A stretch of 64,000 bases of DNA from a virus: positions 27,253 through 91,252 of IMG/VR virus record IMGVR_UViG_3300028192_000001, one strand, 5' to 3'. Positions 26,701-61,193 of the stretch are shown piece by piece. The notes under the pieces are model-generated. The model made no database searches. It was not told the DNA's origin and worked only from the letters and a program-made list of their open reading frames with translations. A program made the position numbers and the translations under genes. The first letter of the stretch is position 1. Every line of letters starts with the position of its first letter.

Positions 26701-29700
26701 ATCATTTGTAACAACTTGATGACCAAATCTATAACCACTATTCACTTCTTCTGGTTGAATTGAAGCAACTTGCGTCCATGTATTATATGTTGACCCATCT
26801 ACTCCAACACTCCAATTATACTGAAAAACTATTCCTGTATCATTATCATATCCTGGTGCACTTATAAACATATATTTTTCTGTTGTTAAAAGTGTTGAAC
26901 TTATTCCGGGTTCAGCAATTGCATGATCCCAACCAAAGTTTAATCCAATTCTTGTTGTTGAATTATCGTATGGTGCATATATTGTTCCACCTAATTCATA
27001 TTGAAAATTTGTACTATCCCATTTATAAAATTTAACAAGTCCTTGATCCGCTTGTTCAGTACTTCCGTCAATGCTTGTATTATTATAAGGAGCACCAGCA
27101 ACTACAAAGTTTTCATCTGTACTCATTGACAATGAATATCCTAACCTTGAAGTAATATCATTGTTTGAAATCATTGTTTTACTTTCAAGTAAACTAAATG
27201 CTTCTCCTGACGTTGCTTCTTTTCTAAAGAAAAAACTAATACTTCCTTGGCTGTAATCTGGTGCTGAAGCAATAACTGTTCTGCCATCACTTCTTGCTAC
27301 TACTTTAAATCCAAAATTTTGATTATCACTACGATCTGGTGATAATATCCGATTAAAATTAAGAGACGATATTTTTTCATAAACTTTCCAGGTACCTCCG
27401 GGATTGTCTATAAAAACTTTATCACCACTAATATCATTTACTTCATCCTTTACAATATAATCTTCAACTGATAAAATATCATTTATATCATCAACTGAAC
27501 TATATCTCGCACTTACAAATTTACTAATATCTCCATATGAATCTTTTGTTGACTGATCTGTTATTCCAATTAGTTCTGATATATTTTCATTATAATCGAC
27601 AATAACTTTATCTGGTGCTGTTACTGATTTAATTTCAAAAACTTTATTAATTGCTGGATACTCTGATCCAGTAACCAACGTATAATCACCAACTTTAAAA
27701 TTATGAGCATAGTTAAAACCAATTTCTAATTGCGTATCTTCATTTATACTTTGTAATTGTATTAATCTTAATTCAGTTCTGGCAATTCGCAATACGTCCC
27801 AATCATTCATTTTATCATTTGCAATCCATATCAAATCTTGATTATCTAACTTTGATGCATCAAGATTTACTATATCAGAAATATTAAACGCAGTATGTTG
27901 TACGTCATCAAATCTTGGATACCCTGCAGTTTTAAAAAATTGTACAAAATCTCTATCACATCCTTCTTTAGTATAATCATATTGATCAAATGTAATTGAT
28001 GGTGTATATTCTAAAGGCTTGTCATAAAAATCTGCTGATGGTATTGATGCTGATTTATTAAATGATAAAGCATCATTTGTTGTATCTAATAATTCTACAC
28101 TTTGAGGATCTTGTAAAAATTTCCTATCATCCATTTTAATTTGTATAGATTTTTTACCATCAACATTTCCAAATGTTCCTGTTCTAATTAACCATTCAGG
28201 ATATACTGATAACTCAATATTTTCATCTAAGAATTTTGCACGTGTTAATTTATTAATTGCACTTTGCGTACCTTTTTCTCTAATAAAACCTTGATAAAAC
28301 TTATATTGTGAAATATCATTTACAAATAAATTTTCTAAATAGTCTCTACTTTGATAACCAGTTAAATGTTGTGCCAAAACTTGTTGACCTTCATCAAAAT
28401 TATTTGTTTCTAAATCATAAAAATCATTAAATTGTGCAATTTTATAATCAAAATTTGGATATAATTCTGAAGATGGTTTACTAGATTTCTTTATCCATTG
28501 TTTATAATCAAACTCTATACCCGAATTATGATTTACATTTGCTACATAAAATTTTGCATTATACTCTACTGTATCGCCAATATTATAATCTGTATTAGCA
28601 ATCCATAAAGATACTTTTGCCTCATCAAATAAAAATCCTGGTGCATGATATCCACCATTCCAATCAGCAGTTTTCCATCCAATTAAACGTAATCTTTGTT
28701 GTCTAAACCCTGTTACTTTATCATATACAATATCACTAAAAACAGTTTTATTATCAAGAAGTAATAAATGTTCTTTTTCAACTGAATATAATTGTATTCC
28801 ATAAATTCCTATATTATCATTTTTTGATACAATATTGAATATATTGCCTGAACGTTTTACAGAAATATCTTTTTCTGATATAGAACGACCTCCTGCATCT
28901 AATACTGTGTATTTGTTATAAACATCTTTTAATTTTCCTACTACTGATTTTTTAGTATTTAAATTAAATCCAGACGCTCCTGGACTTACTGTTATAGCGG
29001 AACCTGCCGCCCAACCTTGAGTTGTCCAGTACACAAATTCATTAATAGCATTCTCCCAATTTATTGTTTTCTGTAATTCACGTGAAAATACATCAAATTC
29101 AAAACCTTGATCTTCTAAATATTTTCCATATCCTTGTAGGAAATCAGATACATCTTGAATAGTTTCAAATACTGTTCCATACACAACTGGTTGTGCAACT
29201 TTCACATATTCTTTATAAACAACTACTCTCGAATCTCCAAATTTTATAACATGATTATTACTATTTTTAATTGGTAGATACATATAAAAAATAGGTGAAT
29301 TAATATCATATCCAACAACTCTATACCCTGGTTCAATTGACGATCCATCTAAAGAAATTGTAGAATTTCTTTCAATAAGCACACCACTATAATAAAATTT
29401 GTTTACAGGATTACTTGTTCTAAAATATACTTTATAATTTTCTGTAGGTAAAAATTGTGATCCTGACGTTGATCCTGGTGAAATTGAATCTGTTAATATT
29501 TTTAAATTTGCTTTATCAGTAAACCCACCTAGTTTATAAGCAAGTTGTACATCTAAATTTTTCATTTTATCGTAATAAAATTTTGCAGGATCTAAATTTT
29601 GTGAAATTAAATAATTTACAGCATATGGTTGATACCCTGCTGTTTGATATCTTGTTGTTACATTTGTTTCTGTATTAACTGAAGTTTCTAAATGATATTT

Positions 29701-47520: not shown

Positions 47521-47727
47521 ATGTCACAAACTCATGAGTCTATAATGACCGAGATCCAAAATTACTCTGAAGAGAACCAAAAGTTCACAGAGAAGGGCGT
47601 TAAGGCTTCTGCCACTAGAGCAAGAAAGGCTTTGGCTTCATTGTCAAAGTTAATTAAGGCTAGAAGAAAAGAAATTCAAGAGCAGAAAAATGCGGCTAAA
47701 ACAGCAACAACAACTGTCGCGGCGTAA
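47521..47727 (+). CDS. Histone H1-like (Hc1-type) small basic DNA-binding protein
   Basis: KFTEKGVKASATRARKAL..L.K..K.RRKEIQ; SD AGGAGG. Confidence 0.7.
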   Translation: MSQTHESIMTEIQNYSEENQKFTEKGVKASATRARKALASLSKLIKARRKEIQEQKNAAKTATTTVAA

Positions 47728-47758
47728 TTTAAACCAATTAAGATCTCATCTAAACAAC

Positions 47759-47787
47759 TAAAGCCTGTACAACAAGTGCAGGCTTTA
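47759..47787. terminator. Hairpin between convergent genes (probable bidirectional terminator)
   Basis: TAAAGCCTGTAC-aacaa-GTGCAGGCTTTA. Confidence 0.7.
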
Positions 47788-48213
47788 CTATTTTAATATA
47801 CCTTTTGTAGATTTTTCCCGAAGTATTCCAGAACCGTGTATTCTCACACGAATATGACCATTATAATAATCATCTGATTCTAAAACTTTACGTGCAAATT
47901 GTTCTCTGGCCTCTATATATGAAAGTTCTGCTTTTGATTTGCAATAAAAAAGTATTTCTCTTTTAAAATTATCTTTACCAAGTTTTTCCACGTCAGCAAG
48001 TAATTGATCACTGCTACCATAATAATATTCCCAATCGCTCGATACAGTATACCTACGTTTATTTCTTCTACCTTTTAATGGTCTACGTGATCTTTTAAAT
48101 CTTGCTAATTTTTTACCTATGTACATCCTACCATTAGTTGTGTTTGTTATTTGATATACAAACCCTACACATTCTGGTAGTTCATTTACTTCTTTATTCT
48201 CATATAACCACAT
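47788..48213 (-). CDS. Stand-alone GIY-YIG endonuclease
   Basis: GFVY.ITN..NGRMYIGKK, YYGSS, FKREIL, E, YYN; TAAATA 7 nt before ATG. Confidence 0.85.
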   Translation of the reverse strand: MWLYENKEVNELPECVGFVYQITNTTNGRMYIGKKLARFKRSRRPLKGRRNKRRYTVSSDWEYYYGSSDQLLADVEKLGKDNFKREILFYCKSKAELSYIEAREQFARKVLESDDYYNGHIRVRIHGSGILREKSTKGILK

Positions 48214-48238
48214 ATTGCGATATTTAAACTCAATTTGA

Positions 48239-48267
48239 TTGACTGTTTATTTTTTGTATGTTATATA
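48239..48267 (+). promoter_or_regulatory. Sigma70-type promoter TTGACT-N17-(TGn)TATATA for the ncRNA candidate
   Basis: Hexamers at 48239-44 and 48262-67 with TG at 48259-60. Confidence 0.5.
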
Positions 48268-48271
48268 TAAG

Positions 48272-48690
48272 TGAAGGGCAACAGCATCCTTCCACCAGGC
48301 AAACATCACCAGGCAAAACATAACATCTTTGATAACCAGTGAATTACTCTGTAACAACAGCGGCGAATCACTTGATGTACATACAAAAAATGATAGGGCT
48401 CTGAGAAAAAGCAACCCTAGGTAGGTATAAAACCAGCATATAGGGATTATATCTACTCGCGTTGGATGAATTAGCGAATGGGTACAGCACAACCGCCCAA
48501 CCAATTGGTAGCAATATATGATGACTGTGAACTCGCCACAAGAGTTTAAGTTAGTTCGGCTGGAAACAGCCGAATTATGACTGCTCATCTGCCACAAGAT
48601 ACACATTGTACATCAGATTAAAAATGCGTTTGCGTAAATTTTAAAAATAAACTGAGCGTAAGCGAAAGTTTAGATGGCTTTAGCCATCTT
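48272..48690 (+). ncRNA. Large structured non-coding RNA candidate (family not recognised)
   Basis: GC-enriched, no credible ORF; many helices, GAAA tetraloop, 9-bp long-range closing helix, duplicated motif, promoter upstream, hairpin at 3' end. Confidence 0.65.
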
Positions 48691-48691
48691 T
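48672..48691. terminator. Hairpin at the junction of the ncRNA candidate and the convergent CDS
   Basis: AGATGGC-ttta-GCCATCT followed by TT. Confidence 0.55.
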
Positions 48692-49643
48692 ATGCTCTTG
48701 GAATGAATGCGTTAAGTAACCGTTGTCTTTCTTCTTTGCCTTGATCTAAATCTTTTACTGTAATTGAACCCATGTAATATCCACCTGGCGGGTGAGCAAT
48801 TAAATTTAAATCTTTTTCCCCATCATACTCTAAACTAATATGACGCATATTTTCATCGGACGCAATATCTTTGATAACTTGCTGATTAATTTCGTAACCG
48901 TGTTTCGGGGAGTCTTCAACAAATAATGGAAGAACATATCCACCTGGTGGTTTTTTATCACCGAGATCTTTTTTCCAAACACCATCTGAATACAATCCCG
49001 GTATTTGTTTAATATTATGTTCTCCGTATAAAGCGGCCATTTGTGGACTTATCCTTAAATGAATTTCTATAATGTTTTGTCCTATACATTCAAAATTAAT
49101 AATTCCATTAAATTCGGAATCTTTTAAATATGTCTCAATAAAATTTGTACACTTTATTGATGACTGAAGCATATTTGCGGATGTTGGTAAATTTTCATCT
49201 ACTCTTCCTTTATACTCCCAATAATCAAACATACCATCCCACGTAGGATGACCTTCTACTATAAAATAATCAATCCATTCACCTTTAGATACTACGTGAT
49301 CTATTGACCAGTGTTCACCAGTATATGCAGACATCCAGAATGCACCTGGGGAATAACTTTTTTTAAAGTCTTTTGGATTTTTTATTAGTGTAGTTCCTTG
49401 CCCACGTCCTTCTAAATTATGAATAGGCTTTTGGAATACAGGATACTCTTCTGGTTCAACTCCTGCAAATCCGTGCGGTACTTCAAGTGCCTCACACATT
49501 TTCACCTTATCATACACCCAATTAAGTGTTGGGTATTTTTTATAGGCATGAATATCGGTTAGTGGAATATCCACATCATCAGGACACTCTACTGACCCGA
49601 AAAGAGCCTTATCTTGTGGGGAATACGCACCGAGAAATGACAT
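48690..49643 (-). CDS. ATP-grasp-like hypothetical protein
   Basis: YPVFQKPI.NLEGRGQG, FW, GEHWSID, NFECIG..IIEIHLR. Confidence 0.5.
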   Translation of the reverse strand: MSFLGAYSPQDKALFGSVECPDDVDIPLTDIHAYKKYPTLNWVYDKVKMCEALEVPHGFAGVEPEEYPVFQKPIHNLEGRGQGTTLIKNPKDFKKSYSPGAFWMSAYTGEHWSIDHVVSKGEWIDYFIVEGHPTWDGMFDYWEYKGRVDENLPTSANMLQSSIKCTNFIETYLKDSEFNGIINFECIGQNIIEIHLRISPQMAALYGEHNIKQIPGLYSDGVWKKDLGDKKPPGGYVLPLFVEDSPKHGYEINQQVIKDIASDENMRHISLEYDGEKDLNLIAHPPGGYYMGSITVKDLDQGKEERQRLLNAFIPRA

Positions 49644-60760: not shown

Positions 60761-60891
60761 TCTTTAGTTATAATGATTTTTTTCTATATTCATACGGTAA
60801 TATCTCAAAATATAGTACTTTAACTCATAAAATATAGTTTCTAAATAATCCAGAGTCGATAAGACTCGTCAACAATAGAAGGAGATCCACT

Positions 60892-61125
60892 ATGGATATC
60901 ATGTTAAAAGTTAAAGGATGGGCAAAAACATTGGCTGACGTAGGAGTAAGTTTAATTGCGTTAGGAATTGTTTTCGAAATTCTTTTTAATGGTCACGGTA
61001 TTCCGTTCTGGCCAAATATTTCTGTTATAGGAAATGTTCAGGGCGTACTGCAAGGATTTTCAGACCAAGGTCTGATAGGTTTAGTTGCAGTTTGGATTCT
61101 ATATCATATCTACAATAGAAAATAA
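60892..61125 (+). CDS. Small two-TM membrane protein
   Basis: Two hydrophobic segments; strong SD GAAGGAG; own TAAATA promoter and terminator. Confidence 0.8.
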   Translation: MDIMLKVKGWAKTLADVGVSLIALGIVFEILFNGHGIPFWPNISVIGNVQGVLQGFSDQGLIGLVAVWILYHIYNRK

Positions 61126-61154
61126 TATAGACATCACATAATATAATGATCCAA

Positions 61155-61191
61155 TTAAGGGTGGTATCACAATTGTTGATATCGCCCTTAA
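61155..61191. terminator. Hairpin between convergent genes
   Basis: TTAAGGGTGGTATCA-caattgt-TGATATCGCCCTTAA. Confidence 0.75.
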
Positions 61192-61193
61192 AT

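Follow-up and report, generated by a model that had tools for sequence, protein, structure and literature searches.

A predicted knotted RNA with twin variable words beside gp46 in aquatic T4-like and jumbo phages

Large and intricate RNAs of open function are rare, and the cases solved so far (RNase P, riboswitches, the HEARO and omega RNAs, and the ROOL and GOLLD cages) have opened fields. A phage copy of a type III antitoxin RNA (pseudo-ToxI), the case of Blower and colleagues from 2012, reportedly acts as a decoy. The large RNAs ROOL, GOLLD and OLE form homo-oligomers (PMC12286853), and the Polynucleobacter-1 motif (RF01718) was listed without a function (Weinberg et al., 2010; PMC2864571). 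The DNA analysed here, referred to as the window, is a 64,000-nucleotide (nt) stretch of the IMG/VR virus record IMGVR_UViG_3300028192_000001 (positions 27,253 to 91,252), in which a gene-free stretch of 476 nt is present at 48214-48689. It was found that this region almost certainly harbors a real structured non-coding RNA (ncRNA) gene; judged from its sequence, the product is a trans-acting RNA of ∼12 helices tied by three pseudoknots.

48273 to 48690, plus strand: ncRNA gene of ∼420 nt, with homologues and covariation.

The source is an uncultured phage whose 91-kb contig is estimated to be 25% complete, which points to a jumbo genome. The gene-free stretch is surrounded by genes for gp47- and gp46-like recombination nucleases, a 68-amino-acid (aa) Hc1 histone-like protein, a 141-aa GIY-YIG nuclease (minus strand), a 317-aa protein (minus strand) and a baseplate-hub protein. 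Its GC content is 40.7% compared with 32.6% for the window, and with a spurious 119-aa open reading frame (ORF) of the minus strand set aside it is the longest internal gap. The first-pass annotation, which had singled out the longest and most GC-rich non-coding stretch, was thus borne out once that ORF was discounted. The foldability it had noted on the plus strand was also reproduced, with fold z-scores against shuffles of −4.4 for the plus strand and −1.6 for the minus strand. The z-score is weak evidence when taken alone, as a small coding gene at 60761-61193 gives −4.45. This second-largest apparent gap (plus strand) contains a Shine-Dalgarno site and an ∼79-aa hydrophobic gene followed by a strong hairpin. 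The verdict in favor of an RNA gene was decisive because of the covariation in 71 sequences, not the fold z-score alone.

Relatives were abundant in environmental DNA. An exact 19-mer from the most conserved hairpin, invariant in the marine clade, matched at least 119 stretches of viral DNA and at least 120 from metagenomes. The metagenome matches yielded no transcript evidence, as the contig names do not distinguish RNA from DNA samples. At least 597 relatives of the GIY-YIG protein were found in IMG/VR, and nhmmer searches with the gap revealed the RNA element beside most of them. As the first-pass annotation had proposed, homologues beside GIY-YIG genes were collected and aligned; the resulting alignment A2 comprised the window sequence and 70 unique full-length relatives (71 sequences), and covariation was evident. 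The curated structure consisted of 74 pairs in 15 helices that were 97.6% paired, compared with 85.2% in shuffles, and compensatory changes were observed in 45 of the 74 pairs. The covariation score of 0.433 fell to 0.05–0.09 when the partners were slid by 1–3 columns. RNAalifold predicted 63 pairs on the same 71 sequences, 37 of them with compensatory changes, and a mutual-information scan added long-range pairs. All the curated helices form in the window sequence. Many conserved G-U pairs in the covariation structure fix the plus strand as the RNA strand, in agreement with the earlier reading of the G-U pairs. The structural elements, with helices numbered P and pseudoknots PK, are as follows.

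48273 to 48292, plus strand: P1 hairpin GAAGG/CCUUC, found as GAUGG/CCAUC or GUUGG/CCAAC in relatives and present in only part of the family.
48293 to 48317, plus strand: two AGGC boxes in an 11-nt direct repeat (starts at 48293 and 48307), with AGGC invariant in the 71 sequences.
48323 to 48378, plus strand: P2 (48323-27/48374-78) enclosing P2a (48338-41/48369-72) and an inner hairpin, with covariation.
48395 to 48418, plus strand: P3 hairpin, 100% paired, with five of six pairs compensatory.
48420 to 48457, plus strand: P4 hairpin of 13 pairs, 11 of them compensatory, whose loop at 48437-41 forms PK1.
48461 to 48464, plus strand: 5' strand of PK3, GUUG, pairing with CAAC at 48490-93 in the P6 loop.
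48474-75 with 48511-12, plus strand: PK2, a two-pair knot.
48479 to 48499, plus strand: P6, the core hairpin, whose 11-nt loop is invariant; no other part of the family is as conserved.
48516 to 48520, plus strand: 3' strand of PK1, pairing with 48437-41, detected by mutual information, 99.7% paired and compensatory in all five pairs.
48552 to 48577, plus strand: P9, an 11-base-pair (bp) hairpin with a GAAA tetraloop, 99.1% paired, with four compensatory pairs.
48607 to 48616, plus strand: 3' strand of a long-range helix with its partner at 48372-81, alternative to P2 and absent in a subclade with a short 3' region.
48649 to 48688, plus strand: 3' domain, comprising P11 (48649-71), which encloses a GNRA hairpin, and the terminal hairpin P12 (48673-88), with compensatory pairs in every helix.

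The core hairpin with its loop knotted to the upstream GUUG (P6 and PK3), by which the family is recognized, is present in the window. PK3 is invariant except in one relative (L059), in which three neighboring pairs change together. Each AGGC box may, tentatively, make a 3-bp contact with one of the two GACUG modules described below. Among the helices named in the first-pass annotation, GAAGG/CCTTC, AGTG/CACT, TAGGG/CCCTA, the 10–11-bp hairpin at 48420-57, TGGG/CCCA, the GAAA hairpin at 48552-77 and the 3' hairpin all showed compensatory changes. The TCGC/GCGA helix was not clearly supported and competes with better-supported knots. Clear support was also missing for the claimed 9-bp long-range helix (48373-81/48607-15), which forms 10 bp in the window and 6–8 bp in many relatives but is lacking in a subclade. 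Its competitor P2 has undergone a compensatory change of its own in the window, from G-C to A-U. The long-range helix is possibly an alternative pairing to P2. The earlier list of helices was otherwise sound but incomplete, as the three pseudoknots and the twin identical words had been passed over.

The same alignment bears on the reading that no RNA gene exists here and that the region is a decayed protein gene, a DNA-level element such as an origin or nuclease target, or a chance structure. A 119-codon open frame on the minus strand and the adjoining nuclease gene could be cited for it. The frame is unconserved, at least 100 open codons being retained in only 12 of the 71 relatives, and indels across the alignment ignore triplet phase (659 are not multiples of three, against 91 that are). 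A coding reading of the minus-strand ORF was rejected. The compensatory changes, the strand-specific G-U pairs and a conserved promoter also speak against any such non-RNA origin, which is scarcely credible.

48239 to 48267, plus strand: promoter with a −35 element TTGACT (48239-44), a 17-nt spacer and an extended −10 element TGtTATATA (48259-67).

The hexamers and spacing of this promoter are conserved across ∼60 relatives (TTGACC, 17 nt, then TATAAAC or TGtTATATA). A simple promoter scan passed over it because the −10 element ends in A. Owing to this conservation, the host sigma70 polymerase probably transcribes the RNA early. The 5' end of the RNA was inferred from the promoter (±2 nt), and the 3' end was placed just past the last hairpin. 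This hairpin is conserved and is followed by a U-rich tail in the window; since most relatives lack a U-run after it, its role may be structural and not that of a classic terminator. Hence, of the sigma70-like promoter and terminator proposed earlier, the promoter and the 3' hairpin stood, and the terminator U-run did not extend to most of the family. No exons flank the RNA; a separate terminator closes the upstream gene, which ends at 47727.

A second mark of the family is a pair of GACUG...CU modules, each followed by a 6–7-nt word ending in A. Both are present in the window.

48521 to 48546, plus strand: module 1, AUGACUG...ACUC, with word 1 GCCACAA (48535-41) in the loop of P8 (stem 48530-34/48542-46).
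48577 to 48599, plus strand: module 2, AUGACUG...AUCU, with word 2 GCCACAA (48591-97), 56 nt past word 1.

The two words of the window are identical over 9 nt, starting GCCACAA. The P8 stem around word 1 covaries, being GAUAC/GUAUC in a subclade, and word 2 is preceded by a weaker, variable stem. The layout of the words is alike in the marine and freshwater clades. The two copies of the 6-mer were equal throughout the 71 aligned RNAs and the 45 freshwater RNAs that yielded a word (the script left 4 of 49 unparsed), as well as in all but one of ∼140 further marine copies. In the exception, an IMG/VR contig (L197), the words ACAACAG and ACCACAG, located ∼50–115 nt after the core 19-mer, differ by one base; these sole unequal twins could reflect an error in sequencing or an intermediate caught in passing. 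When the word columns were left out of tree building, at least 10 word changes were observed on the tree (5, 5, 6, 1, 1 and 0 at positions 1 to 6), and every one was mirrored in the twin copy. All words seen have A at position 6, and the two copies sometimes differ at the 7th base. The best mutual-information partner of the word columns was the twin (0.66–0.84), with any other column reaching at most 0.43, and what the twins share is identity rather than complementarity. The reverse complement of the word does not occur inside the RNA or at any constant position in its vicinity, and neither mutual information nor exact search revealed an internal partner for the words. The terminator arm was considered as an anti-word and rejected, the resemblance being a chance one in a single clade.

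It is more likely than not that an external partner reads the twin words. In the proposed mechanism, the RNA would be a presentation scaffold that displays the twin words to one outside partner with two equal sites. This partner would most likely be a host enzyme that works as a dimer and acts on nucleic acid in a sequence-specific manner; an endoribonuclease belonging to a toxin-antitoxin or abortive-infection system would be one example. Produced early and in abundance, the RNA would titrate this enzyme, as a decoy or pseudo-substrate, and the words of the different lineages would follow what the enzyme of each host recognizes. An enzyme reader engaged in an arms race would be consistent with the repeated switches, the twin symmetry, the A that never varies and the sigma70-type promoter. 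The identification of the partner as a protein enzyme and of the RNA as its decoy is a tentative proposal that may well prove wrong. Several points weigh against it. The reader of the words is hypothetical, and the RNA is known here from sequence alone. A scaffold of at least 300 nt with three knots far exceeds the needs of a simple decoy. The word changes only moderately fast: one word is shared by 39 of the 71 marine RNAs, and between RNAs with different words the core identity reaches 93% in the closest pair. The invariant A could face an invariant U of a nucleic-acid partner, and gene conversion between the repeated modules could contribute to the twin identity. The twin words provide an experimental handle, as the search for a partner is directly testable.

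A broader formulation, possible if rather doubtful, is that of a programmable reader, in which the knotted scaffold carries two interchangeable 6–7-nt address loops that bind a specific outside molecule in two copies. Its targets would be a host defence enzyme, a tRNA or the nucleic acid of a competitor phage, and lineages would re-aim the RNA by rewriting both loops in step. In its strongest version, if true, the address and the domain-poor GIY-YIG nuclease would tell self from non-self among co-infecting phages.

Next after the enzyme decoy comes an adaptor or sponge acting by base pairing, in which each word would pair with a complementary 6–7-nt stretch of an outside RNA present in two copies or with two sites; this includes pairing with a tRNA anticodon loop. 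The words sit in loops, and since the RNA holds no complement of the word, any pairing partner must be external. In a T-box-like variant, positions 3–5 would correspond to a codon and the invariant A would face U33 of the anticodon loop; the triplets observed at these positions (CAC, UAC, GUG, AUG, AUA and CGA) are always followed by A. The twin-identical positions 1–2 are often G or A, however, whereas tRNA positions 37–38 need a pyrimidine and then U. The word and its complement were not clearly enriched in the 64-kb window either (8 occurrences compared with ∼4 expected), the window has no tRNA genes, and no T-box match was obtained at E≤10. The adaptor is on these grounds considered unlikely.

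The words and the GNRA loops could also serve as contacts between copies of a self-assembling ornate RNA, by analogy with the homo-oligomers known for ROOL, GOLLD and OLE (PMC12286853), as the RNA is likewise large, knotted, GNRA-rich and phage-borne. The words are identical and not self-complementary and hence cannot kiss, no complementary loop exists, and a structural contact leaves the free variation at five positions unexplained. With no sequence relation to the ROOL, GOLLD and OLE families, such assembly appears quite improbable. A ribozyme or processed precursor, in which the words would be two cleavage or ligation sites at the invariant A that free a 56-nt hairpin unit, was judged to be still less probable. 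It would account for the two repeated units (hairpin, GACUG module and word) at a fixed spacing of 50–60 nt, for the invariant A and for a knotted fold as compact as those of ribozymes, but the Rfam ribozyme families gave no match and a self-acting site needs no fast-changing sequence.

The gene next to the RNA raises the question of a guide.

47788 to 48213, minus strand: stand-alone GIY-YIG nuclease of 141 aa with a SegE-type domain (Pfam PF19835, E = 3e-34), divergent from the RNA.

By analogy with the HEARO and omega RNAs, the RNA could be a cofactor or guide of this nuclease, with the twin words aiming it or shielding the DNA of the phage itself. The composition of the nuclease favors this, as it has only the Pfam domain in its 141 aa and no DNA-binding domain. 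Among marine loci with sufficient flanking sequence, nearly all have the nuclease next to the RNA, as do 58 of 58 freshwater loci. The adjacency persists in spite of a difference in orientation: the marine nuclease gene is divergent from the RNA, and in all 58 freshwater loci the gene is located upstream and shares the strand of the RNA. Against it, homologues with 40–61% identity are located in tightly packed gene rows of the phages Melnitz, S-SSM7 and phiN3, whose complete genomes do not have the RNA, so strict co-occurrence fails, and some RNA loci (L089, L094, L102 and L147) have no nearby nuclease. No nuclease residue tracks the word, the maximum mutual information being 0.19–0.34 compared with a word entropy of 0.68–0.82; no Hc1 residue was found to track it either. 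The nuclease diverges at the pace of gp46, and its linkage to the RNA can thus be plain synteny. A guide function is accordingly regarded as very unlikely, and GIY-YIG is read as a syntenic core gene and not as a proven partner.

The position of the RNA is fixed in the genome. It is always downstream of gp46 (or gp46 and Hc1) on the same strand and convergent with the baseplate-hub gene, and the window RNA has this family location between gp46(-Hc1-GIY-YIG) and the hub. The gene is single-copy in its contig. The Hc1 gene of the window (47521-47727, plus strand; 68 aa, chlamydial histone H1-like) is upstream of the nuclease and the RNA in most relatives, and a conserved Hc1 gene is unusual in a phage. 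Between the −35 element of the RNA promoter and the GIY-YIG start codon, an element at 48221-48228, TATTTAAA (TTTAAATA on the minus strand), is kept in nearly all relatives and could be a late-type promoter or part of the GIY-YIG gene leader. The 317-aa gene that converges on the RNA (48690-49643, minus strand) has a weak match to phrog_3577 and no close relatives in IMG/VR, and it is not kept beside the RNA elsewhere, its place in the other contigs being taken by a 92-aa coiled-coil gene followed by the hub; it looks like a lineage-specific insertion.

The RNA is abundant in ocean and lake phage DNA, and the family to which it belongs, found in aquatic phages of the T4-like and jumbo kinds, is large. 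No match was obtained by blastn against 50,697 phage records, and the RNA is absent from the whole genomes of the cultured relatives Melnitz, S-SSM7 and phiN3 and from the syntenic region of PA5oct. This Pseudomonas jumbo phage has the closest cultured gp46 (48% identity), and its gp46-to-hub region (L406 7017-9207; NC_071039 75666-77856) has only tiny annotated ORFs and a 660-nt gap, in which the model from this analysis finds no RNA relative. Bacterial and archaeal genomes showed no chromosomal copies; the matches were four full copies on short contigs of metagenome-assembled genomes (MAGs) and three chance 19-mers. The four copies (L399, L403, L404 and L405) are on contigs of 2–10 kb labeled Neomarinimicrobiota, Pacearchaeota, Pseudobdellovibrionaceae and Betaproteobacteria. 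As the contigs are short and the taxa unrelated, these are probably mis-binned phage contigs.

Searches with Rfam, a check also suggested in the first-pass annotation, found no family matching the window, with nothing at the gathering score over the whole window or at E≤10 over 1.3 kb (47700-49000). The GOLLD, ROOL, OLE, raiA and HEARO models did not match at E≤10 over the same 47700-49000, and there was no Rfam match to group I or II introns, RNase P, tmRNA, T-box or known ribozymes. ARAGORN made no tRNA or tmRNA call, and the window is without tRNA genes. By-eye resemblances to RNase P, the T-box core and the hammerhead were dropped, as the models do not match. The earlier statement that no tRNA, tmRNA, RNase P or intron signature was recognizable is in agreement with these searches, and its picture of a large, promoter-driven, plus-strand phage ncRNA was upheld by the homologues, the covariation, the promoter and the lack of an Rfam match.

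The likeness to GOLLD (RF01998) and ROOL (RF03087) that had been suggested was not reflected in any sequence relation, even at E≤10. These RNAs resemble the window RNA in being large, intricately folded, phage- or prophage-borne, GNRA-rich and of open function. The window RNA is smaller, has a twin variable word, occupies a fixed syntenic place in T4-like genomes and is not matched by their models. T-box leaders similarly hold a variable triplet and a following purine (specifier codon, then purine) in a scaffold loop, the purine being an invariant A in the window RNA. The window RNA differs from them in its two word copies, in flanking positions that misfit tRNA loops and in its setting, where the next gene is convergent and no downstream gene is available for regulation. 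Type III antitoxin RNAs and phage pseudo-ToxI share tandem repeated RNA units with the window RNA, and in those systems the units engage a sequence-specific endoribonuclease. The window RNA has two repeats on a conserved 420-nt scaffold, only the 6–7-nt word varies, and no toxin gene is adjacent.

The closest catalogued relation was to RF01718, tested with its 141-position covariance model at a threshold of 37 bits. The model did not match the window (gathering score and E≤10) or 10 distant relatives (E≤1), and two related phage contigs used as positive controls gave 109.8 and 80.3 bits. In these contigs the RF01718 matches are directly upstream of the window-type architecture of core hairpin, twin modules, twin words and 3' domain. 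A covariance model of the core (R1), built from marine sequences only, gave full-length matches at E≤0.01 to 34 loci that are freshwater or distant, although the E-values are rough and the loci were picked via a related 25-mer; two of the R1 matches are directly behind RF01718 matches. Since the RF01718 contigs share the architecture and R1 links both clades, the window RNA can be placed as an uncatalogued marine branch, with a freshwater branch that starts with the Polynucleobacter-1 motif. The earlier suggestion of a possibly new class is thus to be qualified, for no Rfam family matched, but the core model links the RNA to those bearing the RF01718 5' domain. The freshwater RNAs with RF01718 share the core, twin modules, twin words, 3' domain and gene neighborhood of the window RNA. 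RF01718 makes up their 5' third, and the 5' domain of the window RNA is shorter and differently built; the shared 3' two-thirds, with the core hairpin, the knots and the twin words, is missing from Rfam. In the contigs examined, the Rfam orphan RF01718, considered since 2010 to be a possible cis-regulatory motif of Burkholderiales, is only the front domain of a much longer phage RNA.
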